From positions 10,178-74,177 of the forward strand of contig DATJFG010000133.1 in the NCBI GenBank assembly GCA_035495775.1: DNA of 64,000 nucleotides, written 5' to 3'. The stretch is from Verrucomicrobiia bacterium (GTDB lineage: Bacteria; Desulfobacterota; Binatia; UBA9968). Below the pieces are notes generated by a model that saw nothing but the letters and a program-made list of their open reading frames with translations, had not been told where the DNA came from and searched no databases. Numbering within the stretch: the first letter of the stretch is position 1; each line of letters starts with the position of its first letter. Position numbers and translations under genes: made by a program. This document shows positions 901 through 21,364 of the stretch, one piece after another.

Positions 901-1617
901 TTAAAGATAATGACGCCCTTGGAGCGGATCGGGGACGCGAAGCCCCATCGACTCGATCAAGGGGTTCACCTCTTTGATATAGGCTTCGCGCGCCTGCTTG
1001 TTGGAGCGCCGTTTGAGGCCCCAGTAGACGTAGCGCTCCGAGTTCCTTGAATCGGAGTGGCCGAACATGTCGAGCGCCTTGATGTACCAGCGGTTGATCG
1101 CCTGCTGGACTTTTTCTTTCGATTCGCCGCCTCTCGCGGCGAGCTCGCGCGTCTGCGTCTCGCCGTAGTCGATATGGCCCAGCTCTTCCTGGATGATATC
1201 AGCCAACAGCGGCTCGATCGGCCGATAGCTGCAGCCGATAAACTCCTCCAGTTGGTAGCGGCCGATCCGGTCGATCAGGCAGCCGAAGACTGCGAAGTCT
1301 TCCCACGTTTGGATCGCGCCCCGGAACGTTTCCACATAGCGCTTTTGATTCGGCATGCTGAGCAGGAAGGAAACATCGAGGCCGATGTCGCCGGCGATGC
1401 GCGCGAACTTCCGGAAATGATCGATCTCTTCGGTCGCCGTGCGTGCGACGATCAACTGGTCGAGCCGCGTCGGCGCCGTCGGCAGCATCGATTCGACGTA
1501 GAGATGCGGCCCGCCGATCTCGCAGTCCGATTGGATCGTGAGCACTTTGCGCACGAGATCCTGATACTCCGGATCCATCTTCTCGAAATCCTTGGCTTCG
1601 ACTTTGTCTTTGAACAT
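901..1617 (-). CDS. ferritin-like diiron protein, PaaA/PaaC (phenylacetyl-CoA epoxidase) family-like
   Basis: Two E..ExxH diiron motifs (TATEEIDH, IQEELGHIDYG); ~240 aa. An ATG at 1617 with AAGGA RBS is preferred over the TTG at 1626. Confidence 0.6.
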   Translation of the reverse strand: MFKDKVEAKDFEKMDPEYQDLVRKVLTIQSDCEIGGPHLYVESMLPTAPTRLDQLIVARTATEEIDHFRKFARIAGDIGLDVSFLLSMPNQKRYVETFRGAIQTWEDFAVFGCLIDRIGRYQLEEFIGCSYRPIEPLLADIIQEELGHIDYGETQTRELAARGGESKEKVQQAINRWYIKALDMFGHSDSRNSERYVYWGLKRRSNKQAREAYIKEVNPLIESMGLRVPDPLQGRHYL

Positions 1618-1648
1618 CGTCGTCAATCCTTTTTACCCGCGGCGTTGT

Positions 1649-2440
1649 TTAATTGCCGGTGAAATTGGCCTTGCGCTTTTCCAAGAAGGCCGAGGTGCCT
1701 TCGCGGAGATCGTGGCTCGTCGCCAGATTCCCGAAGCAGCGCGCCTCGAGCTCGAGCCCCGCGGCCAGATCGACTTCCGGGCCCCGGTTCATGAGCATCT
1801 TCGAAGCCTCCAGCGCCAAACGCGGCAGCGCCGCGAGCTTGGCCGCGAAGTTATTCGCTTCTTCGAGCAGTTTACCTTTGGGCACGACTTTCATGACGAG
1901 CCCGGCGGCGAGCGCCTGCTCGGCGACAATCGGCTCTCCGGTTAGAATCATTTCCTTCGCTTTTGCGCTGCCGATAAGCCGCGGCAGCCGCTGCGTGCCG
2001 CCGCCGCCTGGAAACGCGCCGATCTTGATTTCCGGCAGGCCGAACTTGGTCCCCTCCGACGCGATGCGGAAATCGCAGGCGAGTGCCAGCTCGCATCCGC
2101 CGCCGAGCGCATAGCCGGCCACGGCGCCGATAACCGGCTGCGGCAGCGCCTCGATCTTGTCGAACAGAAGCTGAAACTCGCGGGCGTGGCGGTAGGTCGC
2201 CTCCGCCGTCGAAGCTTCCAGAATCTCGCCGATGTCGGCGCCGGCGCAGAAAAACTCCTCGCCGCCGGTGACGATCACCACGCGCTGCGAAGGATCGCCG
2301 GCAATCTCCTTGAGCGCGGCTTCCAATTCTTCGCGCAACCGGCCGTTGAAGGAATTTTTCTTTTCCGGCCGGTTGAGCCGAAGCGTCGTGATGCCGCCTT
2401 GTTTATCGACGAGCAGATGCTGAAACATAAACTCCTCCAA
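1649..2440 (-). CDS. enoyl-CoA hydratase/isomerase (crotonase family)
   Basis: Crotonase core motifs: FCAGADI, AVAGYALGGGCELALACDFRIA, GLPEIKIGAFPGGGGTQRLPRLIG; 263 aa. Confidence 0.85.
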   Translation of the reverse strand: MEEFMFQHLLVDKQGGITTLRLNRPEKKNSFNGRLREELEAALKEIAGDPSQRVVIVTGGEEFFCAGADIGEILEASTAEATYRHAREFQLLFDKIEALPQPVIGAVAGYALGGGCELALACDFRIASEGTKFGLPEIKIGAFPGGGGTQRLPRLIGSAKAKEMILTGEPIVAEQALAAGLVMKVVPKGKLLEEANNFAAKLAALPRLALEASKMLMNRGPEVDLAAGLELEARCFGNLATSHDLREGTSAFLEKRKANFTGN

Positions 2441-2449
2441 AAAAACAGA

Positions 2450-3301
2450 TCAAAGGCCGAAGAGCTGGACGGTATTGTCGTGCAAGACTTTTCGCTTCAC
2501 CTCGTCTTTGAGCCCGATCTGATCCATTTGATCGAGGCTCGCCTTCCAGGCAAGCCCGTTAGTGCCCCAGACGCATCGGTCCATGCCCATGCGGCTGTTC
2601 ATGAAGTGAAGGATTTCCGGTCCGAGATATTTCGGCAGCCAGCCGTCGATGCCGAAATAGATATTGTCCCATTTGTAGCAAGCGGAGATGAGCTCCGCCG
2701 CCCACGGCCAGCCCGTGTGCGCGCCGATCATTTTCAATTCCGGAAAGTCGCTCGCGATCTTGTCCAGGTAAATCGGCCGGCCGTGCTCGCTCGGCATCGC
2801 CTCGAGCACATGTCCCACCTGCATCGAAACCGGGATGTCGAGCTCGACGCACTTGGCGTAGAGCGGGTACATCTTGGCATCCGAGAGCGGGATGTCGAAG
2901 CCGTAAATATGGACATAGACGCCTTTAAAGCCGTACTGCTTGACGCCGATCTCGATCTCTTGCAGCGATTCTTTGATGCGGAAGGGGTTATAGCCGGCAA
3001 GTCCGACGAAGCGCTCCGGATAGCGCTTTGTGTACTGCGCGACCTCGTCGAGCGTCGTGTCCATGTACATCCAGTGATTGCGGTAGGACCACATCTTGGT
3101 CTGCGTGATGAAGACCTTCTCCACGCCGGCCTCGTCCATCTTGCCGATCATCGCCTCGATCGAATCGAACTGCGGCAGCCCGCCTATGGCGCGCTCCATG
3201 CGGCAGATGAGCTCGTTTTTTTTCGCGTCGTTCCACTTGGCGATAAACTCCGGTGTCGCCACGTAGTACATCATATCGATCGCTTTGAGGCCGTTCTGCA
3301 T
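2450..3301 (-). CDS. amidohydrolase-2 family (ACMSD/LigW-like metal-dependent hydrolase or decarboxylase)
   Basis: TIM-barrel amidohydrolase_2 signature regions (GFKGVYVH, MQVGH, AHTGWPW, DRCVWGTN); RBS AGGAGA. Confidence 0.75.
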   Translation of the reverse strand: MQNGLKAIDMMYYVATPEFIAKWNDAKKNELICRMERAIGGLPQFDSIEAMIGKMDEAGVEKVFITQTKMWSYRNHWMYMDTTLDEVAQYTKRYPERFVGLAGYNPFRIKESLQEIEIGVKQYGFKGVYVHIYGFDIPLSDAKMYPLYAKCVELDIPVSMQVGHVLEAMPSEHGRPIYLDKIASDFPELKMIGAHTGWPWAAELISACYKWDNIYFGIDGWLPKYLGPEILHFMNSRMGMDRCVWGTNGLAWKASLDQMDQIGLKDEVKRKVLHDNTVQLFGL

Positions 3302-3310
3302 GTTTTTCTC

Positions 3311-4075
3311 CTACGACATCGTGAGGCCGCCGCTGACGCTGATCGTCTGGCCGGTGACGAAATCGGAATCGCTGGAGGCCAGGAACACGACCATCGCGGC
3401 GATCTCCTCGGGCTTCGCGGCGCGGCGGAAAGGCGTCGCTTTGATCACGGCATCGACGATCTTGGCGGTTTTTTCCGATTGGTCCTTAATCGCCTGCATG
3501 AGCGGCGTGTCGGTCATGCCCGGGCAGATGACGTTCACATTGATATTGTATCGGGCGCTCTCCCGCGCGAGCGTCTTGGAAAACGCGATCACCGCGCCTT
3601 TTGCGCCCGAGTAAACCGCCTCCCAGCTCGAGCCCACGCGGCCGGCGTCCGAGGCGATGTTGATGATCTTGCCCGAGCCGTGCTGGATCATGTTCGGCAG
3701 CACGGCTTTCGCCGTCTGCAGGACCGATTTGAAATTGATCGACAAGACCTTGTCCCACGTCTCTTCCGTGCTCTCGAGAAACGGCTCCAGTCTGTCCCAG
3801 CCCGCGCAGTTGACCAGAATATCGATCTGGCCGAACTGGCCGAGAACCGTCTTAACCATCTGTTCGACGTCGGCGCGTTTGGTCAGATCGGTGCGGCAGG
3901 CGACGGCGGAGCCGAAACCCGAGTCTTTGATCTGGCTGCAGACCTTCTCGGCCTGCTCGACGGCGATATCGGCGATCGCGACATTGGCGCCTTCGAGTCC
4001 CAAGGCGATCGCTGTCGCGCGGCCGATGCCGCTTGCGCCTCCCGTGACGATGGCAGTCTTTCGTTTAAGCTTCAT
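3311..4075 (-). CDS. SDR family oxidoreductase (BadH-like 2-hydroxyacyl-CoA dehydrogenase candidate)
   Basis: TGGASGIGRA Rossmann motif, NCAG, YSGAKGA catalytic YxxxK; 254 aa; RBS GGAGGTG. Confidence 0.9.
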   Translation of the reverse strand: MKLKRKTAIVTGGASGIGRATAIALGLEGANVAIADIAVEQAEKVCSQIKDSGFGSAVACRTDLTKRADVEQMVKTVLGQFGQIDILVNCAGWDRLEPFLESTEETWDKVLSINFKSVLQTAKAVLPNMIQHGSGKIINIASDAGRVGSSWEAVYSGAKGAVIAFSKTLARESARYNINVNVICPGMTDTPLMQAIKDQSEKTAKIVDAVIKATPFRRAAKPEEIAAMVVFLASSDSDFVTGQTISVSGGLTMS

Positions 4076-4102
4076 GAAATCACCTCCACAGTGTTTGTTG
4101 AC

Positions 4103-4930
4103 TTAAGCTACTTGGGCTGCCGAGGCCGGCTCTTTCCCGCCTTCGCGGATCTTCTCCAGCCGCTTCAGCGCGAGCAGCGCGGCGCCGATCGCGCCGACCA
4201 TCTCCGGCTCGTCGCTCACGTTGACCTTCTTCTTGACCGTTTCCGATAGCGCTTTGACCATACCGTTTTGTCGTGCGACCCCCCCGACGAACGTCAGTTC
4301 TTCCTCGAGGCCGGCGCGCTTCAGAAGCGCGAGGGCGCGCGAGGCGAGCGAATTGTGCACGCCGCGGAGAATGTCTTCGACCGTTTCGCCTGAAGAGACG
4401 TGGTTGATGATCTCCGACTCCGCGAGCACGGCGCATACGCTGCTGATGGTCTGCGGCTTTTTCGCGTTAAGCGAGAGATCGCCGACCTGCTCGATGGCGA
4501 CCTCGAGGTACTTGGCGGCGCGCTCGATGAAGCCGCCGGCGCCCGCGGCGCACTTGTCATTGGTCCGAAACTCGAGCACCTTGCCCGCTTCGTTCACGCG
4601 CAGCGCGCGCGTGCTCTGCGCGCCGATGTCGAGGACGCACCGGGTCTTGGGGAAGAGAAACACCGATCCTCGCGCGACGCACGTAATGTCTGTGATCTGA
4701 ACATCGCGGAACGGCACGTTGTAACGGCCGAAGCCCGTTGTCGCGATATAGCCTAAATCGCTTTGCGCGATCCCCGCCTGCTTGAGCGCGATATCCAGGG
4801 CATCTTGGGCGATCACCGGGAAATCCGGCTTCGTCCGAATCGAGCTTTTTCCGCGGATGCGCCGCTCGCCGTCGAGCACGATAGCCTTGGTGAGCTTGGC
4901 GCCCATATCGATGCCGGCTACAAAAATCAT
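4103..4930 (-). CDS. BadF/BadG/BcrA/BcrD-type ATPase (CoA-enzyme activase, ASKHA fold), short form
   Basis: GIDMGAK...DIGAQSTRA...DKCAAGAGGF...FVGGVARQ motifs typical of HgdC/BcrD; RBS GAGGAGG. Confidence 0.85.
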   Translation of the reverse strand: MIFVAGIDMGAKLTKAIVLDGERRIRGKSSIRTKPDFPVIAQDALDIALKQAGIAQSDLGYIATTGFGRYNVPFRDVQITDITCVARGSVFLFPKTRCVLDIGAQSTRALRVNEAGKVLEFRTNDKCAAGAGGFIERAAKYLEVAIEQVGDLSLNAKKPQTISSVCAVLAESEIINHVSSGETVEDILRGVHNSLASRALALLKRAGLEEELTFVGGVARQNGMVKALSETVKKKVNVSDEPEMVGAIGAALLALKRLEKIREGGKEPASAAQVA

Positions 4931-4960
4931 GAGGCCTCCTCTTAGGCGACGGGCGAACGG

Positions 4961-5773
4961 CTAGGCCGTCGCCTGAGCCAATTCGCCCTTCGCCTTGACG
5001 GCGCGTTCGAGGGCGAAGATCGCCGCTCCGAGGGCGCCGACATAGTGTGAATCTGGGCTGACGTTTATCTTCATGCCGAGTTTTTCCTCCAGCGCGCTCA
5101 CCATGCCGATATTGCGCGAGACGCCGCCGGTGAATGTCACCTCCGGCTCGATGCCGACCCGGCGTATGAGAGAGACCGTGCGCGCGGCGATGGCGCTGTG
5201 GACGCCGCCGAGGATGTCCTCGACCTTTTTATTTTGCGCTAGATAGGACATGATGTCCGATTCGACGAAAACCGTGCACACGGTGGTGAGGCGCACGGGA
5301 TTCTTCGCCTTCAGCGCAATCGGTCCGATGTCGTCGAGATTCAAAAGCAGCGCCTCGGCCGCGCTGCCGAGGAATCGTCCCGTGCCCGCCGCGCATTTAT
5401 CGTTCATAACGAAGTCTTTGACATCGCCGTCCGGGCCGACGCGTATGCCTTTGGCGTCCTGTCCCCCCATGTCGATGACCGTCTTGGTGTTCGGGAATAG
5501 ATAACACGCGCCGCGCGCGTGGCAGCTGATCTCGGTGATCTGCGCGTCGCCGAAGGTTACTTTGTAGCGGCCGTAGCCGGTGCCGACGATGTAGGCGACG
5601 TCTTCGCGCGGCACGTTGGAGACTTTGAGCAATTCTTTGAAGCAGTTGTCGCCCGCGCGCGTCACGTTGGCGCCCGTCATGATGAGAGCACGCGCGACGA
5701 TGTTGCGGTTCTCGTCGAGGATAATGCCTTTGGTTTGCGTCGAGCCGACGTCGATTCCCGCGCTGTACATCAT
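4961..5773 (-). CDS. BadF/BadG/BcrA/BcrD-type ATPase, second distinct subunit
   Basis: [11 protein letters not shown]...[10 protein letters not shown]...[11 protein letters not shown]...FTGGVSRN. The true start is at the MMYSAG doublet (AGGAGGTG RBS); the track ORF has an Arg-rich spurious extension. ATGA overlap with the upstream gene. Confidence 0.85.
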
Positions 5774-7065
5774 GCGGCACCTCCTGCGGCGGCTTTCGCC
5801 TCGCGAACGATTTTCTTGTGCTCCAACGACTCGAAAAATGCGTCGATGCGGTTTTTGATCTGCGCTTCCGAAAAGTAGCGCGGGTCTTCGATGTCGGACT
5901 CGATGAGCAGCGTCGGCACATTGAGGTCTTTCGTGAAGTACTCGCGCATGTCGCCCTGCCCTGCGGAGAAAAGCCGGCAGCTCTTCACGGAATGGATGAC
6001 GAGCGCGTCGGCGTTCCATTCTTCAATGTAGCGGCGGATTTGCGCATAGCGCTGGAGGAAGTTTCGATTCGTGACGTTCCATTCGAGCATGTGCTCGGCG
6101 ATCGATTCGAGCGGCCGGTTCGGGTCGTGCTTGAAGCCGAACTCCCAGAGGCCGCCGACGGTCGAATAGGTAGAGGCGACGGCCACCGCGCCCCACTTCG
6201 AGAAGAGATCGCGGAAGGTCCGCAAAAAGGGCCACGGCGGAGGACCTTCGATGACGAAGCGGAAACGCTCCTCGGGCAGCGGCCCCTGACCCATTTCCAC
6301 TTTTTCTTCCATCTCTTTGAGAGCGGTCTGGAAAAATTTAAGCCCGTCTTCGGTGCCGCGAAGACAATAGAGCGGCGCCATCATCGTCACGGAGTCGAAG
6401 TAGGCGTCGAACGGCGTCGGCCTATGTTTGGTGAGCGACTTCACCTTCGACCACAGCTCGCCGGTCTCGGCCGAGAACTCGACGATTCTCTTGAGCTTGG
6501 CCCAGTCGAGATCTTTGCCGGTGATCCGCTCCATGGCGACTATCACCTCTTCGAGCTGCTTGACGACGTATTCGATATCCGCCTTCGAAGGTTTGCCGGA
6601 CGGGTCGCGCAGAAACGGGATGTCGAGATTATAAATCTCGCCGTCGCAGTATTCCGCCAGATGCTCGAACCACTGGAGATAGACATTGCAGCCGACGTAG
6701 TTACAGAGAATTAAAGACGGCAGCGGGATCGTCGCAAAAGGGGTCTTGCGGTCGCCGAGAAAAAGACCGACGTCGGCCTTCACATAGGCGCAGTTGTCCA
6801 TGGAATAGCCGATCTCCTCGGCCTTCTGAATGAACGGCAGCGCGGCTTTTTTGACCGCGAGCTGCAGCGCGTTGATCTCGGGATACACCGGCACCATGTC
6901 GAAGGCCTGAACGAGCTCGACGGGATTGCCGCTGATCAGCATGTAAACGGCTTTGCCGTCGCCTTGCTCGGCGGCCCGCGTGACGCGGGCGAAGTAGCGC
7001 CCCATCATATCCTTCTGGAGCAGGTGCATCTGGCCCTGGTAAATGCTCTTTGCCGATTCAGCCAT
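5770..7065 (-). CDS. 2-hydroxyacyl-CoA dehydratase/benzoyl-CoA reductase BcrB/BadE/HgdA-like subunit
   Basis: 431 aa; HgdAB/BcrBC-family fold inferred from size, conserved Cys pattern and operon context with two activase ATPases; RBS AGGAGG. Confidence 0.75.
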
Positions 7066-7073
7066 TGTTCCTC

Positions 7074-8228
7074 CTAATCGAACAGCATGGATTCCACGAA
7101 CGTTTCGACCTCGGTTCTCGACTTGTCAAAAATCCACATCTTTTCTTCGAATTCGAGGTAAAGATGAGGAATCCCTGCTTTCTCCAGAGCCTGACGATAG
7201 AGGGCATAGTCAAACAAGGCGGGCTCGCAAAACTTCGCCGCGAGGATCACGACGGCTGCCGCGCCGGTTTCTTTGACTTTGTCGATGAGGTGTTTCGATT
7301 TCCGCTCGCGAGTGTCGTGCTTCACGCCCGAGTAGACGCTCCGTCTCAGATAGCTTTCGGCGAGGTTCCGCACAGGATCGCCGTCGGTCGGAATATCTTC
7401 GGTGAAGAAGCGCCAGCCGGTCAGGAAATCGTCGTCCAGGATGTAACAGCCGGCGGCTTCGAGCCCTTCGATCAATTCGAGCGGCGGCTGCTCGCAGAAG
7501 GAGCCTTCGAGCACGACTTTGATGCGGTCCTTTGGCCTCTCGTCCCGCAGTCGAATGGCAGCCAGGGCTTCCTTGAGAATGGAGATATGCTCTTCGGGGG
7601 GCATCAGTGTCGCGATTCGCGTAAGCACGTAAGTCTCGACCGTGGAGAGGTTCTGCGGCTGTGTCGCGCGGAGCGCGTAAAGGTCGCGCAGCAGCTTTCG
7701 CTGTTCGTTGTAGATTCGCGTGCTGCGTCTGAGAGCCTCGTCGTCGGGTTTGATGCCGGAAAGCTCCGTATAGCTCTCCAGTAGCCGATGATACTCCGCC
7801 GTGAGATAATCGACGGTGGCCGGCGAAGTCATATTCTGCGGAAAGTGGATATATTCGACCATGAGTTTCGGAAAGTTCCGTTTGTAAACGCTGGCCAGGT
7901 TTCGCGCGGGGTCGCAGATCGAATGGAAGACGATGCCGTCGAGGAATCCGATGCGGTCGGTCATCGCGAGTTCGAGTGTGCTTTTGACGATCGAGCAGAC
8001 GAACGATTGAAAGCGCGAATCGGCATGGGCGATCTCCAGTCGGTTGCCGCCGCCGAGGATACCCACCGGCAACATCCCGGCTGCATGAATCAGTTCGACG
8101 GGCGAATAGACGGGATAGCAGCCGACGGCTTTTGTCGTGGGATGGCTCGCCTTCCAGCGCGCGACCCGCTCAAGCGGCGCCTCTTCCAAGGCCTCTCTAT
8201 ACTCGGCGATTACGTTGTCTATGTTCAT
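7074..8228 (-). CDS. 2-hydroxyacyl-CoA dehydratase/benzoyl-CoA reductase BcrC/BadD/HgdB-like subunit
   Basis: 384 aa, first gene of operon, same family as downstream gene; size matches BcrC/BzdN/BadD. Confidence 0.75.
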   Translation of the reverse strand: MNIDNVIAEYREALEEAPLERVARWKASHPTTKAVGCYPVYSPVELIHAAGMLPVGILGGGNRLEIAHADSRFQSFVCSIVKSTLELAMTDRIGFLDGIVFHSICDPARNLASVYKRNFPKLMVEYIHFPQNMTSPATVDYLTAEYHRLLESYTELSGIKPDDEALRRSTRIYNEQRKLLRDLYALRATQPQNLSTVETYVLTRIATLMPPEEHISILKEALAAIRLRDERPKDRIKVVLEGSFCEQPPLELIEGLEAAGCYILDDDFLTGWRFFTEDIPTDGDPVRNLAESYLRRSVYSGVKHDTRERKSKHLIDKVKETGAAAVVILAAKFCEPALFDYALYRQALEKAGIPHLYLEFEEKMWIFDKSRTEVETFVESMLFD

Positions 8229-8280
8229 CGGTGCCTCATATCTGAACGGTCATTCGTTCTGTTCTCCTAATGCTGAAGCG

Positions 8281-8296
8281 AGCAATCCATATGCCA
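8281..8296 (-). promoter_or_regulatory. sigma54 (-24/-12) promoter, TGGCAT-atgga-TTGCT, for the reductase operon
   Basis: Plus strand reads AGCAATCCATATGCCA; reverse complement is TGGCATATGGATTGCT with exact GG/GC spacing; 53 nt upstream of start at 8228. Confidence 0.65.
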
Positions 8297-8520
8297 GCGA
8301 ATTTCTGCCAGTGATTCAGTTAATTGCAAGTATTTGTGTCGTTCGGTTTTCTCAAAATAAAGAAGAAACGAAGGGATATTCTCAATCGTGCGACTGCTGG
8401 ATTGCGACACATCACTCGTCGGTTTTCCGTCGCTTTAGCGCTGGGTTCTACCGATATGCCGGTTTTATTTGAAAATGGAGCGCCGACGGATTATAAATGC
8501 GCGAAAGGGGTTACTTATCC

Positions 8521-9018
8521 ATGGAGTCCGATTTCGAACCACTCGAGGCCTTTTCTGAGGTCGAACGGTTAGTCGGAAAGGTGTATTTCCGATTTTCCCA
8601 TCTTTTCATGGGCCGGCCGGATCTCAGAGATTTCTGGTGGGAAATGGCGCGCCAGGAAGAGCAGCACGGACTCATTCTACTTGCATGCAAACTCATCATT
8701 CAGAATTATGAAGATGAGGAGGTCGATCCGAGTCTCGGCCGCGAGAACGCACGGCGATTGAAAGAGCACGTGCAAAGTTATTTAAGCGAAGGAACGCCGG
8801 CGATCAGCGTCAACGAAGCGTTCAAAATCGCGCTTGACATCGAGACCTCCGAGATCGACGCGATTTACGGCAAGCTGTTACAGTTGGGAGGCCCCAAGGT
8901 CGCTCAGACACTAGAGAACCTAGGCGTGCCGGCGAGCGTGCAGCGACAAAAACTCAAAGGCGCGATTCGTCAGTTTTGCAACGATCCCAACCTAATCGCC
9001 GCGGCGGAGCAGCTATAA
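8521..9018 (+). CDS. hypothetical ferritin-like 4-helix protein (ExxH motifs), possible partner of the adjacent sigma54 activator
   Basis: EMARQEEQHG and LDIETSEIDAIYG motifs; paralog of 18782-19276 product (IILHDEERHHGLL / LILDSEKHERLLG). Start uncertain (8497 or 8521). Confidence 0.5.
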   Translation: MESDFEPLEAFSEVERLVGKVYFRFSHLFMGRPDLRDFWWEMARQEEQHGLILLACKLIIQNYEDEEVDPSLGRENARRLKEHVQSYLSEGTPAISVNEAFKIALDIETSEIDAIYGKLLQLGGPKVAQTLENLGVPASVQRQKLKGAIRQFCNDPNLIAAAEQL

Positions 9019-9023
9019 GACGA

Positions 9024-9974
9024 ATGGATTCCATGCAGAGCGGCTTCGAACATATCATCGGTAAGAGCAGAGTTCTGCTCAACTTGCTGGACATGGTGAC
9101 CAAGGTCGCGCCGACTGCGGCGACGGTCTTGATCTCCGGAGAAAGCGGCACCGGCAAGGAGCTTATCGCGCGCTCCATTCATTCGCTGAGCGACCGGCGC
9201 GACAAGCTCTTTTTACCGGTGAACTGCGGCGCATTGCCGGAGACATTGTTGGAGAGCCTTCTCTTCGGTCACATGAAGGGTTCTTTCACCGGCGCGTTCG
9301 CCAACCAAGAGGGGCTTTTTGAGAAAGCCCGCGGCGGCACGATTTTCTTAGATGAGATCGGCGAAATCCCGCAGCACCTCCAGGTGAAGCTGCTGCGCGC
9401 CCTCGAAGCGAAGGAGATCCTGCCGATCGGCAGCACGAGCCCGCGGCGCACCGATGTGCGAGTGGTCGCAGCGACGAACCGGGATTTGAAAAAGGAGACC
9501 GTCGAGGGACGGTTTCGCGACGATCTATACTACCGACTTAACATCATGGAGCTTCATATCCCGCCGCTGCGCGAACGGCCCGAGGATATTCCGCTTCTCA
9601 TCGAGCATCTGGTTCGCAGGCACAATCCCGAACTGAAAAAAAACTTCAGGGGCGCCGAGCCGGAGGTGATCCGCATGCTCGCCACTCTCGAATGGAAGGG
9701 CAATGTGCGCGAGCTCGACAATGTGATCGAGCACACGATGATCCTCGCCGATGGCGAATGGATCAAAATGGAACATGTGCCGGCGAGCCTCAAGAATCAG
9801 GAAACGGTCACCCCCTTTATTTTGAACCTCAAAGAAGCGACGAGACAATTCGAAAAACAGCACATCGTCCATGTCCTCGAGCAGGCGGGACAAGACCGCA
9901 AAGAGGCCGCGCGCTTGCTCGATATCAGTCTCTCTTCGCTGTATCGTAAGCTCGAAGAGCTGGGAATCGATTGA
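9024..9974 (+). CDS. sigma54-dependent transcriptional activator (bEBP) lacking N-terminal regulatory domain (PspF/HrpS-like architecture)
   Basis: Starts directly in AAA+ domain: Walker A GESGTGKE, GSFTGA (GAFTGA) motif, Walker B/R-finger, C-terminal Fis-type HTH; ~317 aa. Confidence 0.85.
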   Translation: MDSMQSGFEHIIGKSRVLLNLLDMVTKVAPTAATVLISGESGTGKELIARSIHSLSDRRDKLFLPVNCGALPETLLESLLFGHMKGSFTGAFANQEGLFEKARGGTIFLDEIGEIPQHLQVKLLRALEAKEILPIGSTSPRRTDVRVVAATNRDLKKETVEGRFRDDLYYRLNIMELHIPPLRERPEDIPLLIEHLVRRHNPELKKNFRGAEPEVIRMLATLEWKGNVRELDNVIEHTMILADGEWIKMEHVPASLKNQETVTPFILNLKEATRQFEKQHIVHVLEQAGQDRKEAARLLDISLSSLYRKLEELGID

Positions 9975-10073
9975 TTCCGGTTCTGAAGACATTTACCCGC
10001 GTCTTTTCCCGAAGTTGAGAAACGAGCTGCGATTTTCTTCAGCGTAAACAGCGTTCTTCGCGCGCTAAATCCC

Positions 10074-10089
10074 TGGCATCCTTATTGCT
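10074..10089 (+). promoter_or_regulatory. sigma54 promoter TGGCAT-cctta-TTGCT
   Basis: Exact -24 GG / -12 GC spacing; just upstream of the kinase-fusion gene. Confidence 0.6.
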
Positions 10090-10111
10090 CGGCGTATGCT
10101 GTGGAGCAGTC

Positions 10112-11749
10112 ATGGAACCCGAGTCGCTCATGTTGCCGTCGCCGCGTGCTGATCAGGAATCATTGGTGCAGGCGATGCTCGACCCGGCCTTTTACCCGCG
10201 TCGGCCATCGACGGTAAACTATCGCGAAACTCACATCTCGCACCTATTCTTCGCGGGAGACCTCGTCTACAAGGTCAAAAAAGACGTACGGTATTCGTTT
10301 GTCGATTACTCGAACTTAGAGCGGCGGCTGTTTTTCCTCCAGGAGGAACTCCGGCTCAATCGCCGTCTCGCGCCATCGGTGTATCTCGGCATCCTGCCGA
10401 TCTCTCACGACGACTACGGCTGGCAGCTGGGCAGTGATGCCCAACTAGCGGAATACGCCCTGGTTATGCGACGACTACCCGAACGGCGCATGCTCGATCA
10501 TCTCCTCGACACCGGCCAGGCGACGCCGTCGATGATGGACGCAGTGGCGGAAACACTCGCGCCGTTTCACGCAGCGGCGCCGAACGGCCGCAAGGTGCGG
10601 CCCTTCGGCGATCCAGCGAGGATCCGCTCGGTATGGACGGAGAACCTCTCCGATCTCGATCCTTTCATCGGACGCACCGTTGACGCCGGAACGCTCGCGG
10701 CGATTCGAGCATTCGGCGACAGTTTCCTGGCCGAGCATTCAGAACTGATGCAGCGCCGCGCGCTCGCCGGCTACACGCGCGAGGTTCACGGCGATCTTCA
10801 TTGCGAACATATCTGTTTCGCCCCCGAAGGCATCCAGATTTACGACTGCGTCGAGTTCAGCCGCCGCTTTAGATTCATCGACGTCGCGTCCGAGGTCGCC
10901 TTTCTCTCGATGGACCTCCAGGCGCGCGGGGCTCGCGAACACGCTCAGCGCTTTATCAATCGGTATGTCGAGCTGACGAACGACGCCGACCTGGCGAAGC
11001 TTCTGCCGTTTTATGAATGTTATCGGGCGCTCGTCAGGGCGAAGGTATTCACGCTCATCTTTCGCGACCGCGCCGAGGCGGCGTCGCGCTATTTCGATCA
11101 GGCGTACAGTTATACCTGGCAGGCGCTGAAGCCTTTCGTGGTGATGATCGCCGGCTTGACCGGCAGCGGGAAATCCACTCTAGCGCGCGCGCTCGCGCGA
11201 CGGCTCGGCGCGACTGTGATCAACTCCGATGTCACGCGTAAACGCCTTGCGGGCGCCTCCGATCGGCACGATCAGCTTAAGTACGGCGAAGGGCTCTATA
11301 GCCCGGCGATGACGGCGCGCGCCTATCGCAAGATGATGGAAGAAGCGGATAATTGTCTCGCCGCCGGCCGCAGCGTGATTCTCGACGCCACGTTTCATAA
11401 AGCGGCGCAGCGCGATCCGTCTTTGGAGATCGCCGAGCGCCGCGGTGCGTCCATAGCGCTCATCGAATGCCATGCGCGTGACGATCTCATCCGTGAGCGG
11501 CTCGCCGCCCGCGCCGAGGCCAGACGCGATCCTTCTGACGGAAATTGGCAAATTTACTTGAAACAAAAAGAGCTCTTCGAACCGTTTACGCTAAACCCTA
11601 ATCGCCTGCGGCTCGATACGGAGCTGTCGCTTGCGCAGCTCACGAACAAGTCCGAAGAGTTTCTCAGGGCCGCGCTGGCAAAGCCGGCGAATAAGACGGC
11701 CTATCCCATTCGAATTGCCGCCTCGAATCTGCTATCAGAAACCCGATGA
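10112..11749 (+). CDS. bifunctional phosphotransferase (APH/choline-kinase-like) + P-loop AAA_33-type kinase fusion
   Basis: N-terminal half has HGDLHCEHI catalytic loop and DxxE region of phosphotransferase family; C-terminal half has Walker A GLTGSGKST. ATG at 10112 (GGAG RBS) preferred over the TTG at 10085, which lies inside the promoter. Confidence 0.7.
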   Translation: MEPESLMLPSPRADQESLVQAMLDPAFYPRRPSTVNYRETHISHLFFAGDLVYKVKKDVRYSFVDYSNLERRLFFLQEELRLNRRLAPSVYLGILPISHDDYGWQLGSDAQLAEYALVMRRLPERRMLDHLLDTGQATPSMMDAVAETLAPFHAAAPNGRKVRPFGDPARIRSVWTENLSDLDPFIGRTVDAGTLAAIRAFGDSFLAEHSELMQRRALAGYTREVHGDLHCEHICFAPEGIQIYDCVEFSRRFRFIDVASEVAFLSMDLQARGAREHAQRFINRYVELTNDADLAKLLPFYECYRALVRAKVFTLIFRDRAEAASRYFDQAYSYTWQALKPFVVMIAGLTGSGKSTLARALARRLGATVINSDVTRKRLAGASDRHDQLKYGEGLYSPAMTARAYRKMMEEADNCLAAGRSVILDATFHKAAQRDPSLEIAERRGASIALIECHARDDLIRERLAARAEARRDPSDGNWQIYLKQKELFEPFTLNPNRLRLDTELSLAQLTNKSEEFLRAALAKPANKTAYPIRIAASNLLSETR

Positions 11750-12921
11750 GGGAAGTCGTTATCTTGAGCGCCGTGCGGACGCCGATCGGCGGCCTCAACG
11801 GATCGCTGTCTGCATTGCCGGCGCCGGCGCTCGGCAGCGTCGCGATCCGCGAGGCGCTCGCTCAGGCTCGGATCGGCGCCGAGCGCGTCGACGCCGTCAT
11901 CATGGGCAATGTCATCTCCGCGGGCGTCGGACAGGCACCGGCGCGCCAGGCGGCGCTCAAAGCCGGCCTTCCAAATACGGTCAGTTGCACGACGATCAAC
12001 AAGGTCTGCGGTTCGGGTCTCAATGCGGCGATGATCGCCGCGCAAGCGATCCGCACCGGAGACGCGGAAGTCATCGTGGCGGGCGGTATGGAGAGCATGA
12101 GCAACGCGCCCTATCTCCTCGACCGCGCACGCGCCGGCTATCGCATGGGCCACGCGACAGTTCTCGACAGTCTGATCAGAGACGGTCTGTGGGATGCCGT
12201 CGGCGATTTTCATATGGGCGTGGCGGCGGAGAAGTGCGCCGAGCGCTTCGGCATCTCGCGCGCCGATCAGGATGAATTCGCGGCGACAAGTTATCGCCGC
12301 GCGCACGCGGCGCAGATTAGCGGCGCGTTCAAGCACGAAATCGTTCCCGTGCTGACCGTTCAAAAGAACGGCTCCACGCCTGTAGCCGAAGATGAATCGG
12401 TGAAACGCTTCGATGCCGAGAAGATGCGCGCGCTAAAGCCGGCCTTTAAGTCCGACGGAACGGTTACGGCGGGGAACTCCTCTTCGATCAGCGACGGCGC
12501 CGCAGCCGTCGTCTTGATGACGCGCGAGAAGGCCGATGCGTTGGGCCTCAAACCCATCGCGCGGGTGATCGGCTCGGCGTCCGCGGCGCGCGCGCCTGAA
12601 TGGTTCACGATCGCGCCGGCCGACGTTATACCGAGGCTACTCGATCGCTGCGGCTACTCATTGAGCGACATTCACCTCTTCGAGATCAATGAGGCCTTTG
12701 CGGCCGCATCGATCGCCGTCAACCGCCTGCTCCATCTCGATCCGGAAAAGGTCAACGTGCGCGGCGGCGCCGTCGCCCTGGGCCATCCGATCGGCGCCAG
12801 CGGCGCGCGCATCTTGACGACGTTGACGCATGCGCTGGTCGACCTCGATAAAGAGCGCGGCGTGGCCGCGCTTTGCATCGGCGGGGGTGAAGCGGTGGCG
12901 ATGATGGTCGAGCGGCTTTAA
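11746..12921 (+). CDS. acetyl-CoA C-acyltransferase (thiolase II family)
   Basis: N-terminal VIVSAVRTPIGG-like block, active-site NKVCGSG, C-terminal GGGEAVAM; 391 aa; ATGA overlap with upstream gene. Confidence 0.9.
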   Translation: MREVVILSAVRTPIGGLNGSLSALPAPALGSVAIREALAQARIGAERVDAVIMGNVISAGVGQAPARQAALKAGLPNTVSCTTINKVCGSGLNAAMIAAQAIRTGDAEVIVAGGMESMSNAPYLLDRARAGYRMGHATVLDSLIRDGLWDAVGDFHMGVAAEKCAERFGISRADQDEFAATSYRRAHAAQISGAFKHEIVPVLTVQKNGSTPVAEDESVKRFDAEKMRALKPAFKSDGTVTAGNSSSISDGAAAVVLMTREKADALGLKPIARVIGSASAARAPEWFTIAPADVIPRLLDRCGYSLSDIHLFEINEAFAAASIAVNRLLHLDPEKVNVRGGAVALGHPIGASGARILTTLTHALVDLDKERGVAALCIGGGEAVAMMVERL

Positions 12922-12934
12922 TCCACTTTACGCT

Positions 12935-14386
12935 TCAGCGATCGATCTGATCCGCCGTGGCGCTATAGGTCTCGAATTTCGCGCGCACGTAAGGCGAGCT
13001 GTAGCCGTTTCGAATGCGCTCGATGCGCTCGGGCCGGCTGAAGAACTCCCGGTTGATCTCCGCCGACAGCGCTCCGAGCTCCTGCCGTGAGAGATGGCGC
13101 GTCGGCATGACGGTGTGAATCGCATCCCAATTTTTCAGATCGATGTTCTCGACGCGCTCACCCGTGAGCGCTTGGCGCCAGACCGGCGATCCGGGCATCG
13201 GCGTCAGGAGCATGAGAACGCCGATATCCGGGTCGATGTCGTCGACGGCGCGAAAACGCTGCCGAATCTTCGTCGCATCGTCCTCCCAGAAACCGCTCAT
13301 GTAGGTGCCGACTGTCGAGATGTCGTTTCGCCTGAGGAGTCGCACGAGCTCTCTTAAATCTCCGATCGTATAGCGATCTTTGCTTTTATGCAGGTTGACC
13401 AGCTCCTCGTCGCTGCCGACTTCGATGCCGAATAAGACCTGATAGCAGCCGGCGCGCCGCATGCGCGGAATCAAGTCGGCGTCGCGAAGCAGGTTGCGCG
13501 CTCGTCCCATGAAGAACCATTGCATATCGATGCGGCGCTTCTCGATCTCATCCAAGAGATCGACGATTTTTTGCCGGTCGGAGTTGAAATCGTCGTCCAT
13601 GAAGTTGAGCGCCTTCACGCCGTAGGTCTTGCTCAGCAACTCCATTTCATCGGCGACGAGCTTTCCGCTGCGCGTGCGGTGAACGAAAAAATCCTGCCGT
13701 CGGCGAAAATCTACCAGGCCCCACTCGTAGCAGAAGCTGCAGGCTCCTTCGCAGCCGCGGCTCGTCACCGCCTCGTTATATCCTGCGATCCGGGAAAAGC
13801 CGATGTATTTATCCATCGGGAAGAGATCATACGCCGGCATGGGCAACTCGTTCAGATCGATGATGAGCGGCCGCGGCGCGGTGAAGCGGATTTCGGATTG
13901 TTCCCGATAGGCGAGGCCGAGAACATCTTTGAGATTTGGTTGCGCCGATTTGAGCTGCTCCAAAAGCTCGGCGAGCGTCCGGTCGGCCTCTCCGATCACG
14001 ATGTAATCCAGCTGCGGAGCGAGACCGAGAATGTCTTTCGGCATGGACGAAAGCGCAAGGCCGCCGGAGATCGTGACGATACTGGGAAACGCTTGCTTGA
14101 CGGTCTCGAGGGCTTCCAAATAGCGCATCACCGAACCTGCGCCGCCTTCGGTCACGACCCGGGTGCCGACGAAGATCGCGTCGGGCGCGCTCTTTCTGAT
14201 GCTCTCGATCATCGCCTCTTCATCGAGGCCGAGAGCGCGGCAGTCGAGGACTTCGACCTGCGCAACCTTTTGCGTGCGAACGTACGCCGCCAAGTGTGCG
14301 TAGAGGGCATTACAGGCGACGTGGCGCGCGCCCCAGCGCTTCCAATTAGCCATCGGCGGCGTAAGGAAAAGTAGCTTCATATTCAC
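12935..14386 (-). CDS. B12-binding domain radical SAM protein (class B radical SAM)
   Basis: N-terminal cobalamin-binding Rossmann-like domain followed by CEGACSFC (CxxxCxxC) radical SAM cluster motif; 483 aa. Confidence 0.85.
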   Translation of the reverse strand: MNMKLLFLTPPMANWKRWGARHVACNALYAHLAAYVRTQKVAQVEVLDCRALGLDEEAMIESIRKSAPDAIFVGTRVVTEGGAGSVMRYLEALETVKQAFPSIVTISGGLALSSMPKDILGLAPQLDYIVIGEADRTLAELLEQLKSAQPNLKDVLGLAYREQSEIRFTAPRPLIIDLNELPMPAYDLFPMDKYIGFSRIAGYNEAVTSRGCEGACSFCYEWGLVDFRRRQDFFVHRTRSGKLVADEMELLSKTYGVKALNFMDDDFNSDRQKIVDLLDEIEKRRIDMQWFFMGRARNLLRDADLIPRMRRAGCYQVLFGIEVGSDEELVNLHKSKDRYTIGDLRELVRLLRRNDISTVGTYMSGFWEDDATKIRQRFRAVDDIDPDIGVLMLLTPMPGSPVWRQALTGERVENIDLKNWDAIHTVMPTRHLSRQELGALSAEINREFFSRPERIERIRNGYSSPYVRAKFETYSATADQIDR

Positions 14387-14427: not shown

Positions 14428-14443
14428 AGCAACTGCTATGCCA
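14428..14443 (-). promoter_or_regulatory. sigma54 promoter TGGCAT-agcag-TTGCT for B12-radical SAM gene
   Basis: Plus strand AGCAACTGCTATGCCA; reverse complement has exact consensus spacing; 42 nt upstream of start at 14386. Confidence 0.6.
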
Positions 14444-14590
14444 CCGTAAACAGCCGATACGGGGCATATTAAAGGGAAATTACGTAACAAATTTCTGTCG
14501 ATAAGAAACAGATAGGAAACTTTTCCCAAATTAAGGAAGTGGGTAAATCATCCGTCTAAGACTTAGCACGATGGCGGGGTAGCGCTCTTG

Positions 14591-18781: not shown

Positions 18782-19276
18782 TCAGGTCATCTGGATTATT
18801 TTTTCGATCGCGCCGAGGAGTCGCTCATGCTTTTCGCTGTCGAGAATGAGCGCGTCGAGCAGGGCGCCGAAAAATTCGCTCTCTTCGGGCGGAGTCCGGC
18901 TCTTCAGCTCGCGGCACGCCGTGATCGTTTCACGCTCGTGTTCCTGGAGTTTGCGCATGTGGCGGGCGAGCTCGTAGGGATCGACCACCCACGGCAGGGC
19001 GTTCTTCCGCCGATTTTTCATGCGCAGGTACTTGGCCATCATGCGTAGTAGCCCATGATGCCGCTCTTCGTCGTGCAAGATGATATCGATGAGAAAACGC
19101 GCCGGGCCGCTCTCGATGGGGCCGGCAAGCTTGCGGTATTCCTCCATGATGCCTGTCTCGGTCTCGACGTGCTGATCGAGACAAGCCGCGCAAAGCTCGC
19201 GGCTATTATCAAGCGGAACGGCTGGTCGGCTCGGTTCGGCTAGCGTGGACTTACCACGCGGTTCGGAAGTTTTCAT
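18782..19276 (-). CDS. hypothetical ferritin-like protein, paralog of the 8521-9018 product
   Basis: ExxH motifs HDEERHHGLL and DSEKHERLLG; RBS GGAGGTG. Confidence 0.45.
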   Translation of the reverse strand: MKTSEPRGKSTLAEPSRPAVPLDNSRELCAACLDQHVETETGIMEEYRKLAGPIESGPARFLIDIILHDEERHHGLLRMMAKYLRMKNRRKNALPWVVDPYELARHMRKLQEHERETITACRELKSRTPPEESEFFGALLDALILDSEKHERLLGAIEKIIQMT

Positions 19277-19559: not shown

Positions 19560-19765
19560 GAGCATCCTCCTGTGCTTTGCGCGATCTCCTTAAATGGGCG
19601 AGCAAAACAAAGGCCAAGACATTCGGCATCGCTTTGCTGCGGGGGCGATGCCTTTCGTCTGTGAGCATTCTCAAGACTGCAAAGAAGGAGAAATTTTTTA
19701 TTGGATTTGAGAACGAAAAGTTCGAAAAATACTGCCGCGATGCAGCCGTTGCGGGCGTTTTTTGA

Positions 19766-19781
19766 TGGCATATGCCTTGCT
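19766..19781 (+). promoter_or_regulatory. sigma54 promoter TGGCAT-atgcc-TTGCT
   Basis: Exact consensus spacing; 54 nt upstream of the LTxxQ protein gene. Confidence 0.6.
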
Positions 19782-19834
19782 GAATTTACTTTGTGTATTC
19801 TGCGATTGAACTCGATAAGCGAAGGGGAAAGGTT

Positions 19835-20095
19835 ATGAGAAAATTACATTGGCCGATACCTGTTGTTGGAGTCTTTGTCGCGGCGCTGGCGACAGCCCAG
19901 GAGCCCACTTCAAAACCGCCGGAAAATCAAGGAACGCCGCAGGGCATGATGCGCGACGGCGGGCCGATGCGCGACATGAGCGCGATGATGGAGATGATGC
20001 GGACGATGACTCCCGAGCAGCGGGCGAAGATGGTTGAACACTGCCGCGAGATGATGGAAGCCGCGGCGGCAACGACATCACAGGCGGAGAAATAG
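19835..20095 (+). CDS. small periplasmic Met-rich LTxxQ-motif protein (Spy/CpxP/ZraP/CnrX-like)
   Basis: Signal peptide MRKLHWPIPVVGVFVAALATAQE; MTPEQRAKM LTxxQ-like motif; Met-rich segment; good RBS. Confidence 0.45.
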   Translation: MRKLHWPIPVVGVFVAALATAQEPTSKPPENQGTPQGMMRDGGPMRDMSAMMEMMRTMTPEQRAKMVEHCREMMEAAAATTSQAEK

Positions 20096-20101: not shown

Positions 20102-21205
20102 ATGCATTTTGAAACGAGCGAAGTGTCCGACACCGAACGCGCCGCGAGTCGATTCGTCCATTCGCGCGCGCCGCTTTTAATCTATTGGGAACTTACGCGG
20201 GCGTGCGATCTCGCATGCCGGCATTGCCGCGCAGAGGCGATCGCGCAGCGCGACGCTCGCGAGCTCGATACTTTCGAAGCGATGGCGCTGCTCGAGAAAA
20301 TCCGCTCGTTCAGCGAGCACGGAGTCCACGTGGTGCTGACAGGCGGCGATCCGCTCAAACGTCCGGATCTCTGCACGCTCATCGAGCATGGCGCCAAGAT
20401 AGGGTTAGCGGTGTCGATCGCGCCAAGCAGCACGAATCTGCTCACGCGCGAAGTCTTCCAGCGCTTCAAGGACTCGGGCGTGGAAAGTTTGAGCCTGAGC
20501 CTCGACGGCTCGACGGCCGAAAAGCACGAAGAGATACGCGGCGTCCCCGGCTGCTTCGGCAGAACGCTCGACGCCGCGTGGGACGCTCTCCGCGCCGGTC
20601 TCCGCCTTCAGGTCAATACTTTGGTGACGGCCGAAACGCTGGAGGACCTCGACGAGACTTATGGACTGCTAAAGCATCTTCCGCTGATGCGGTGGAAACT
20701 CTTCACGTTGATCGGCGTTGGAAGGGGACGCACGCTGAAGGAGCCGTCGCCGGAACAATGCGAGGCGCTGCACCACTGGCTTTGCGATGTTTCGAAAGAT
20801 TCCCCGTTTCCTGTTGCGACCACCGAAGCGCCGCATTTTCGCCGCGTCGCCCTGACTCGGATGCGTGAGCGCGGCATGCCGATGGCGAAGATTGAAAAAA
20901 CGCCGGTCGGAAGAGGGTTCGGCATCCGGGACGGCAATGGAATTCTTTTCATCTCGCACAGCGGCCATGTTTATCCATCCGGGTTTCTGCCGCTTGCCGC
21001 GGGCAACGTGCGCAACTCAGACGTGACCGACCTTTATCGCTTTTCGAAATTGTTCCGCAACTTGCGCTCCACGCGGTTGTACAAAGGGAAATGCGGCCGC
21101 TGCGAGTTCAGAGAAATCTGCGGCGGCTCCCGCGCGCGCGCTTATGCGCGCCATGGCGATCCGCTTGAAAGCGATCCGCTCTGCGCGTACGAGCCCGTTC
21201 ACTAA
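20102..21205 (+). CDS. radical SAM enzyme with C-terminal SPASM domain
   Basis: CDLACRHC CxxxCxxC near N-terminus; C-terminal Cys cluster CGRCEFREICGG...C typical of SPASM auxiliary clusters; 367 aa. Confidence 0.8.
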   Translation: MHFETSEVSDTERAASRFVHSRAPLLIYWELTRACDLACRHCRAEAIAQRDARELDTFEAMALLEKIRSFSEHGVHVVLTGGDPLKRPDLCTLIEHGAKIGLAVSIAPSSTNLLTREVFQRFKDSGVESLSLSLDGSTAEKHEEIRGVPGCFGRTLDAAWDALRAGLRLQVNTLVTAETLEDLDETYGLLKHLPLMRWKLFTLIGVGRGRTLKEPSPEQCEALHHWLCDVSKDSPFPVATTEAPHFRRVALTRMRERGMPMAKIEKTPVGRGFGIRDGNGILFISHSGHVYPSGFLPLAAGNVRNSDVTDLYRFSKLFRNLRSTRLYKGKCGRCEFREICGGSRARAYARHGDPLESDPLCAYEPVH

Positions 21206-21364
21206 ACGGCTGCGATAAGTCCGCAGTTCCGTTCTTCTAAGCCTGTTCCAGAAACTAGGACAGCGCCTTACATGCTTTCTCATTTTTGCGAAATTGGAAA
21301 CTGGCCTACGCCTATAAGCCCGTGTTTTTATACGCAATCTTGACAATTTTTGGATCCTCTTCGC

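Follow-up and report, generated by a model that had tools for sequence, protein, structure and literature searches.

The stretch analysed here, 64,000 nucleotides of contig DATJFG010000133.1 from a Binatia assembly (GCA_035495775.1) and called the window throughout, contains a gene for a bacterial enhancer-binding protein (EBP) that lacks a sensor domain, preceded by a gene for a small ferritin-like protein that we call B. The conservation of this pair suggests that B supplies the sensor that the EBP is missing. We tentatively propose, with slightly more doubt than belief, that B, together with a second small protein family that we call A, is a metal- or redox-sensing partner that would act in trans on the EBP.

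The + strand between 8229 and 10102 contains two open reading frames (ORFs). The first (8521-9018) encodes B, a protein 165 aa long predicted to form a ferritin-like four-helix bundle with an incomplete di-iron site, and is the candidate trans partner. The second (9024-9974) encodes the EBP, 316 aa long, a receiver-less sigma-54 activator comprised of an AAA+ domain, a lid, and a Fis-type helix-turn-helix (HTH). The gap between the two is 5 nt, so that the small gene is directly upstream of the EBP gene as a first-pass annotation of this DNA had described. Two conserved sigma-54 promoters, 8296(-) and 10074(+), flank the pair. An Rfam scan of 8000-10300 matched no RNA element, and a generic repeat search of the intergenic regions gave nothing useful.

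B is conserved next to receiver-less EBPs

We surveyed the pair from both sides, using 71 B loci from species-representative genomes, 63 of which were assessable, and 80 metagenome loci for the EBP; labels such as L001 and L013 denote homologous comparison loci. An EBP is directly downstream of B in 44 of the 63 assessable loci. It is receiver-less in 40 of them (~314 aa) and has a receiver-sized N-terminus in 4. From the EBP side, B is immediately upstream of 23 of the 24 receiver-less EBPs with at least 70% identity, the exception being L085, versus 1 of 35 receiver-type relatives (Fisher exact p=4e-14, uncorrected for shared ancestry). Homologs of the EBP at 58% identity or less all have an N-terminal extension of ~131-148 residues, and B was found with none of the 32 that were assessable. 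The first-pass annotation had proposed looking for the two genes together across genomes, with their separation in related genomes counting against a regulatory module. The pair is conserved whichever gene the survey starts from.

These counts could also arise if B and the EBP are neighbours by descent in one clade and have no functional link. Outside Binatia and related metagenome-assembled genomes (MAGs) the B family is almost absent, which makes the counts interdependent. However, the pair persists at B identities from 95% down to ~55% through a complete change of flanking genes, and the receiver-bearing relatives of the EBP occur without B, leading us to regard coincidental synteny as very improbable. 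On the divergent side, the gene next to the module encodes PFK in 13 loci and HGD-D/Bcr, UbiD, or PaaA/C in 4 loci each; on the downstream side, it encodes a kinase with APH and AAA_33 domains in 24 of 52 assessable loci.

An activator that has lost its receiver

The EBP translation contains a Walker A motif (GESGTGKE), a Walker B motif (IFLDEIGE), and a GAFTGA-type loop (GSFTGA). Pfam places Sigma54_activat at residues 11-177 (PF00158, E=4e-67), AAA_lid_14 at 183-261, and HTH_8 at 274-312. By its AAA+ motifs and C-terminal HTH, this is an intact bacterial enhancer-binding protein. Pfam shows nothing N-terminal of the AAA+ domain, bearing out the earlier statement that the protein begins there with no REC, GAF, or PAS domain, and its orthologs are 313-316 aa long.

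The same annotation likened the EBP to PspF or HrpR/S. The likeness is correct for the sensor-less architecture and fails for descent. The closest solved relatives are ZraR (1e-81), NifA, and NtrC1/NtrC4, whereas PspF matches at 3e-53. NCBIfam equivalog models match the EBP through its central and C-terminal parts only, all with scores under their cut-offs and the pspF models far under. A PspF-type ancestry was rejected on the weaker PspF match and these low pspF scores. Among relatives with 45-58% identity, the N-terminus is receiver-sized in every case. To judge from its sequence, the EBP descends from the NtrC/ZraR clade and has lost its receiver, and by architecture it is grouped with group-4 EBPs, a class without an R domain for which a review gives "protein binding in trans" as the mode of regulation (PMC7175178).

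It is conceivable that B, or A and B, is needed positively as a co-activator or assembly factor that stabilizes the EBP hexamer or delivers metal. Such a role would fit the tight coupling in translation and the almost constant presence of B with receiver-less EBPs. The receiver promotes assembly in NtrC-type proteins (NtrC as opposed to NtrC1 and DctD), and its loss from a protein of this type would call for a substitute assembly aid. However, among the closest solved relatives of this EBP are ZraR and NtrC1-type proteins, whose receiver has an inhibitory role. In addition, the EBP in L085 has no B upstream, and a partner of this kind has no known precedent. We therefore consider a co-activator role unlikely.

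B is a ferritin-like protein with a degenerate metal site

B has no significant match in Pfam, NCBIfam, or the PDB sequences. A collection of 5.8 billion proteins contains ~994 homologs, nearly all from Candidatus Binatia or from MAGs labelled 'Deltaproteobacteria', and these are named 'hypothetical' or, by one source, 'rubrerythrin', with no other names. The family is tight, with a mean column identity of 79%. Its invariant residues are E15, H27, R36-D37-F38-W39-W40, E46, H49, C56, E108, E111, G123-G124-P125, G135-V136-P137, V140-Q141-R142, and C153.

The first-pass annotation described a small helical protein with ExxH motifs and asked whether its fold is ferritin-like or a PspA-like coiled coil. 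B has the up-down-down-up four-helix bundle of the ferritin-like superfamily and lacks the long coiled coil of PspA, so that membership of the PspA/IM30 family was rejected. It contains a single ExxH motif (E46xxH49) and not several. Compared with the E / ExxH / E / ExxH ligand set, the first three elements are kept (E15, E46xxH49, E108/E111) and the fourth is missing, with Q141, R142, and Q143 in helix 4 (residues 137-152) and no E or H anywhere in that helix. Because helix 4 has no acidic or histidine residues, an ordinary di-iron catalytic site appears unlikely, and the metal site is degenerate and probably non-catalytic. The most invariant stretch of B (GGP...GVPxxVQR) is in a lower-confidence region of the structural model and outside the canonical ligand helices. 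RDFWW, GGP, and GVPxxVQR may form a conserved surface that is not catalytic.

Assignment to the rubrerythrins (PF02915) was also rejected. B itself has no match, 3 of 54 family members match at E-values of at least 0.054, and there are no CxxC pairs; distant relatives of B match PF02915 near or under the cut-off. The nearest known kin by fold are small ferritin-like or rubrerythrin-like proteins, TM1526 (1vjx), COG1633 (2oh3), and the N-terminal domain of a GGDEF protein (3ezu). Unlike these, B has no ExxH in helix 4 and no Pfam or NCBIfam match, and has invariant motifs of its own (RDFWW, GGP, GVPxxVQR).

Gene contexts of distant B relatives were uninformative or contained no EBP. In L167 (2374-3625), the gene for a distant relative (P0163, 37% identity) shares 23 nt with the 3' end of a Crp/Fnr-family regulator gene. 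This single case again places a small ferritin-like protein beside a transcription factor.

A second small protein, A, is part of the canonical module

The gene at 18782-19276(-) was at first taken to encode a paralog of B in another sigma-54-linked locus. The linkage is correct, since this gene is in an operon behind a sigma-54-like box at 19616(-). The paralogy is not, because homology to B was not detectable (BLASTP E=0.018 over 50 residues; hhalign probability 1%). The encoded protein, 164 aa long, is a distal member of family A and matches the hidden Markov model of the A proteins adjacent to B with an E-value of 4.6e-46. Its model has four long helices (pLDDT 83). A CAAC motif marks this A-like copy, and the small family around it numbers 43 matches. 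Its gene is second in an operon that contains a 90-aa ORF, the A-like gene, RidA, UbiD, and two NMT1 genes.

A profile of family A, made from relatives of this protein in the fetched loci, located A (~168 aa) directly upstream of B in 41 of the 63 assessable genomes, on the same strand and with gaps of a few nucleotides. Thus, the canonical module is A-B-EBP. Family A has the invariant residues H36, E40, E70, H73, H74, E114, D146, and H150, and neither A nor B is represented in Pfam or NCBIfam. In the lineage of the window (L001-L004, L013-L015) the adjacent A has been lost and a divergent A-like copy is found several kb away. B has been kept with the EBP after this loss, 5-24 nt apart.

Several loci vary this arrangement. 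In L056 (5485-6495), matches to the A and B profiles are in one 336-aa ORF, which is either an A-B fusion or an assembly frameshift; a natural fusion, if real, would favour A-B heterodimerisation. In L040 and L041 the A ORFs are long, probably because their start codons were called too far upstream. L005-L010 and L164 share a recurrent, ancestral-looking order with PaaA/C-like and multicopper oxidase genes divergent, then DoxX-A-B with or without an EBP, and a convergent GlnE. L164, in which B is 33% identical, has thioredoxin, AhpC, DsbD, and SCO1 as neighbours and only a weak sigma-54-like box (TGGTAT-N5-TTGC).

Sigma-54 promoters near the pair share a palindromic enhancer

The sigma-54 (-24/-12) promoter of an operon that encodes a bcrCBAD-like reductase is at 8282..8296 on the - strand (TGGCATATGGATTGC), 54 nt upstream of the ATG at 8228, and its reverse-complement box is kept in L001 and L013-L015. 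The sigma-54 promoter of a kinase/thiolase operon is at 10074..10089 on the + strand (TGGCATCCTTATTGC at 10074-10088; TGGCATCCTTATTGCT). A promoter ~100 bp past the EBP stop codon is kept in L001-4, L013, L014, L016, and L072. The boxes have the GG and GC of TGGCAC-N5-TTGCW 10 bp apart, on the right strand and before a gene. Over the whole window, matches to the sigma-54 box are not above chance (6 versus 3.6 expected). The 8296(-) and 10074(+) boxes are credible because they are intergenic, correctly oriented, conserved in orthologous loci, and accompanied by a palindrome at a fixed distance. The placement of the gene pair between the promoters of the reductase and kinase/thiolase operons, as first proposed, is therefore upheld.

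The palindrome, 16 bp long with the consensus TTCNNA-N4-TNNGAA, precedes five sigma-54 promoters within 12 kb (8296-, 10074+, 14443-, 19616-, and 19766+), each time at about -60 from the TGGCA box. Its right half, TTGAGAA, is 58-59 bp upstream of TGGC in promoter orientation at 8296-, 10074+, 19616-, and 19766+; the 11 occurrences of this heptamer in the window, versus 7.4 expected, are not significant alone. Upstream of 8296(-), the predicted proximal enhancer, or upstream activating sequence (UAS), is at 8349..8364 (TTCTCAAAATAAAGAA; 1 mismatch to the consensus), with its TTGAGAA half-site 59 bp before TGGCA and its TTCTC box kept in orthologous loci. The predicted distal UAS is at 8379..8394 (TTCTCAATCGTGCGAC), 30 bp from the proximal site, in line with two positional peaks found over 98 promoters. 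The UAS predicted for 10074(+) is at 10006..10021 (TTCCCGAAGTTGAGAA), and L001 and L013-L016 have counterparts of it (TTCCCGAAGTTAAGAA, TTCTTGAACTTAAGAA) at this position. Further along, the 14443(-) promoter of a B12-radical-SAM gene has an enhancer at 14523-14538 (both within 14428..14538, - strand; TTCCCAAATTAAGGAA). The divergent promoters 19616(-) and 19766(+) (19601..19781) share enhancers at 19668-19683 and 19698-19713, the latter being weaker with 2 mismatches. A second copy of the palindrome follows ~30-40 bp further upstream, at least for 8296(-) and for the region shared by 19616(-) and 19766(+).

Across the 71 genome loci, one or more palindromes lie between -150 and -30 at 75 of the 99 sigma-54 promoters that remain once redundant ones are removed. 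Together the 99 promoter regions contain 112 palindromes versus 10 +/- 3.5 in dinucleotide-preserving shuffles, an 11-fold excess. The positions form two peaks ~32 bp apart, a spacing that the two sites upstream of 8296(-) fit, and this pattern reads as the signature of tandem UAS for a dimer-binding HTH activator. Every palindrome listed for the window has a sigma-54-like box at the expected distance.

The window encodes just one other EBP, a receiver-containing NtrC-type protein (47020-48393, + strand). Next to it is the only perfect TGGCAC-N5-TTGC box in the window (48524-48539, + strand), with no TTCNNA-N4-TNNGAA upstream. Because the palindrome is absent there, we regard this locus as a separate sigma-54 circuit and assign the palindrome to the sensor-less EBP, of which it is the predicted target. 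The palindrome is near 18 of 24 promoters beside close relatives of this EBP versus 3 of 6 beside distant receiver-type EBPs, the latter being few promoters. With a shared palindromic enhancer at fixed spacing, the EBP very probably controls both flanking promoters, in agreement with the first-pass annotation, and several others.

The activator appears to be constitutive and A-B to be its output

A putative sigma-70-like promoter (TTGAAA-N17-TATAAA) precedes the B-EBP pair at 8469..8497 on the + strand. ATTTGAAAA and TATAA(A/G) from this region are kept in all five aligned lineages. The promoter escaped a simple sigma-70 scanner because its -10 element ends in A. In the lineage of the window no sigma-54 box lies directly before B-EBP. 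By contrast, canonical modules have a sigma-54 promoter and UAS before A, or before DoxX-A, even when no EBP is adjacent; DoxX precedes A in 8 of 34 loci. Where the gap between B and the EBP is 50-160 nt, it often contains a promoter resembling TTGACA-N17-TATCTT (13 of ~38 distinct intergenic sequences). Given sigma-70-like promoters for the EBP and sigma-54 promoters with UAS for A-B or A, the activator appears to be made constitutively, with A-B (A alone in the window) as the output of the system.

This wiring also suits the main alternative, in which A-B, with or without DoxX, is regulated cargo. The two proteins would then be a ferritin- or rubrerythrin-like effector, for example one that shields oxygen-sensitive enzymes by scavenging O2 or peroxide or by handling iron, and would be the principal target of this EBP clade. 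Control of the EBP would come from elsewhere, such as its own expression level, an unlinked partner, or a higher EBP in a cascade. The sigma-54 promoter and enhancer before A-B in loci with no adjacent EBP fit this alternative, as do the DoxX genes before A and the distant A-B pair of L164, which sits beside DoxX and thioredoxin/AhpC/DsbD genes. Family A has kept six candidate metal ligands, some sources use the 'rubrerythrin' label, the iron genes VIT1, FeoB, and FTR1 recur nearby, and A-B is also found upstream of a few receiver-bearing EBPs. A parallel is known from the Bacillus cereus group, where a Dps-like ferritin co-transcribed in the sigB operon serves as a stress effector and not as a regulator (cf. 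2qqy). Against cargo, B has neither the fourth-helix ligands nor a rubredoxin domain. The lineage of the window keeps B alone, with no A or DoxX beside it, a few bases before the EBP in a sigma-70-like operon, an arrangement that is hard to explain for a subunit of a sigma-54-induced effector. Cargo also leaves a constitutive, sensor-less activator with no control. We judge this alternative to be doubtful, though it deserves serious weight.

Several observations weigh against B, with A, being the trans partner of the EBP. The evidence that links B to the EBP is throughout that of gene neighbourhood, and the strong co-occurrence may come from a single ancestral event in one clade. B, with A, is found with no adjacent EBP in 19 of the 63 assessable loci. 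Conversely, L085 has a close sensor-less EBP with no B upstream, and A-B lies upstream of receiver-bearing EBPs in L011, L019, L022, L070, and L094, where an extra sensor would be less obviously needed. The more distant B homolog of L164 is in a DoxX-A-B group among thiol-redox genes with no EBP. Finally, A-B driven by a sigma-54 promoter and enhancer would be equally expected of a simple target operon. From the EBP-free loci and L164, A-B has a life of its own. By analogy with PspA, an effector role for A-B and a regulatory role need not be mutually exclusive.

A proposed mechanism

On the proposal that B acts in trans with A, the EBP would bind the palindromes via its Fis-type HTH, form a ring, and use ATP to open E-sigma54 complexes. 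The promoters it would serve are those for the benzoyl-CoA-reductase-like enzyme, two radical-SAM enzymes, a UbiD-family enzyme, and the kinase/thiolase pair. More weakly, through promoters with 2 mismatches, the regulon might include a 2-oxoacid:ferredoxin oxidoreductase and Usp. Because the EBP is sensor-less and made from sigma-70-like promoters, its activity would have to be gated in trans. We envisage B as the gate. Co-translated with the EBP, it would bind the AAA+ domain and either block or permit ring assembly and ATPase activity, according to the occupancy or redox state of its residual carboxylate/His (possibly Cys) site. The signal could be O2, redox state, or iron, and both the signal and the sign of control are guesses. 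A would pair with B. The two are translationally coupled in most genomes, and here A is the protein from 18782-19276 under sigma-54 control. Being itself an output, A would close a feedback loop like that of Psp.

A broader version of this proposal is that A and B form a metal- or redox-sensing module that replaces the lost receiver of an NtrC-family activator, a third and mechanistically new class of trans partner after PspA and HrpV, and switch on an oxygen-sensitive, hypoxia-type regulon in otherwise aerobic Binatota. We put this forward as a possibility, with somewhat more doubt than belief.

The candidate regulon

The operon behind 8296(-) contains a class-I benzoyl-CoA-reductase-like set at 4103..8228 on the - strand, made up of bcrC (7074-8228), bcrB (5770-7065), a bcrA-like gene (4961-5713), and a bcrD-like gene (4103-4930). 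The encoded proteins match HGD-D and BcrAD_BadFG in Pfam and benz_CoA_red_C, benz_CoA_red_B, and an activase model in NCBIfam, all under equivalog cut-offs. Because of these low scores, the substrate of the enzyme may not be benzoyl-CoA. Over 901-8228(-), bcrC-bcrB-bcrA-bcrD are followed by genes for an SDR, an amidohydrolase_2, an enoyl-CoA hydratase, and a PaaA/C-like ferritin-fold protein.

Behind 10074(+) is a target gene for a two-domain kinase with APH and AAA_33 domains in Pfam (10103..11749, + strand), the start of which, 10103 or 10121, is uncertain. It is followed by a target gene for a thiolase (11746..12921, + strand; Thiolase_N and Thiolase_C). The kinase, ~545 aa long with its own sigma-54 promoter, also follows the module in loci that have no EBP. 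We take its architecture to resemble that of dormancy-regulon proteins of mycobacteria.

The B12-radical-SAM gene (Pfam; 12935-14386, - strand) is behind the 14443(-) promoter. A second radical-SAM gene (20102-21205, + strand) is also behind a sigma-54 promoter, after a 100-aa ORF with no family match (19793-20095). The two could be part of a peptide-modification or anaerobic-activation system.

Two additional sites may extend the regulon. A perfect palindrome at 21277-21292 (TTCTCATTTTTGCGAA) is 88 bp upstream of a sigma-54-like box with 2 mismatches, 21365(+). Behind this box are genes for a 2-oxoacid:ferredoxin oxidoreductase (21369-25002) and, downstream of it, VIT1 (25013-25822), both candidate members. 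The other site, at 31682-31697 (TTCGCATTGAAGCGAA), lies between the divergent sigma-54-like boxes 31603(-) and 31739(+), with 2 mismatches each. Usp (31067-31543), behind 31603(-), is a candidate member. On the other side, 31725-36535(+) encodes CarboxypepD_reg and cupredoxin proteins, a multihaem cytochrome (33251-34213), and an outer-membrane porin of the MtrB/PioB type (34226-36535). As a porin-cytochrome module, this cluster may serve extracellular electron transfer or iron oxidation, and the same sigma-54 control may extend to it. The 2-oxoacid:ferredoxin oxidoreductase with VIT1, Usp, and the porin-cytochrome cluster are probably also in the regulon.

The functions in this candidate regulon are largely oxygen-sensitive or suited to low oxygen, and the PFK, GAPDH, and Usp neighbours of the module elsewhere agree with this. 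The Binatota are abundant in soils, have never been cultured, and are described mainly as aerobic methylotrophs and alkane degraders (PMC8262859). If the regulon is as proposed, the enhancer motif and the promoters that carry it would offer a point of entry to the regulation of anaerobic aromatic catabolism and of adaptation to hypoxia in this group. Even if A-B is cargo, the TTCNNA-N4-TNNGAA enhancer, the regulon map, and the coincidence of receiver loss with the presence of B are new.

Comparison with known trans-regulated activators

To our knowledge, there are only two paradigms of sensor-less sigma-54 activators controlled in trans, PspA-PspF and HrpV-HrpS. In the first, an EBP with no regulatory domain is made from a sigma-70 promoter and controlled by an adjacent partner with feedback (PMC3791423, PMC3128695, PMC7175178 Table 1). 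The canonical A-B-EBP module is similar in that the partner is transcribed from what would be the EBP's own sigma-54 target promoter, giving a feedback loop, and, as with PspA, the partner probably has an effector role independent of the EBP. It is different in that B is a ferritin-like four-helix bundle and not a PspA/IM30 coiled coil, and in that the EBP is nearer to ZraR, NifA, and NtrC. In addition, B in the window is co-transcribed with the EBP and not divergent from it, and the pairing of B with the EBP is known from genes alone.

In the second paradigm, the type III secretion system of Pseudomonas syringae, the sensor-less EBPs HrpR/HrpS are held in check in trans by HrpV, a small unrelated protein of the regulon (PMC4145663, PMC3105312). 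The module described here differs in having a single EBP and no co-dependent pair, and in the fold of the partner. No anti-anti-activator like HrpG was identified in the A-B-EBP system, a role that family A could conceivably have.

Redox or iron input has precedents among sigma-54 activators in NifL-NifA and NorR. The sensor of NorR is a non-haem iron centre. This iron is in cis, in NorR's own GAF domain, whereas the putative site here is on B, a separate ferritin-like protein. NifL is an anti-activator that relays O2 or redox status to NifA by protein-protein contact (PMC12998190). It is a large PAS/histidine-kinase-like flavoprotein and NifA keeps its GAF domain, whereas B is a separate protein of 165 aa.

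A search of a literature library for links between ferritin-like proteins or Binatia and sigma-54 activators found nothing. If our proposal is correct, a ferritin-like partner would add a new signal input to this class of activators, sited in a metal or redox centre that a small protein carries apart from the EBP, and two new protein families would be defined, B (~1000 database members) and A. The logic, a sensor-less EBP regulated in trans, is known from the Psp and Hrp systems, and A-B would be a new candidate partner family that is neither PspA-like nor HrpV-like.

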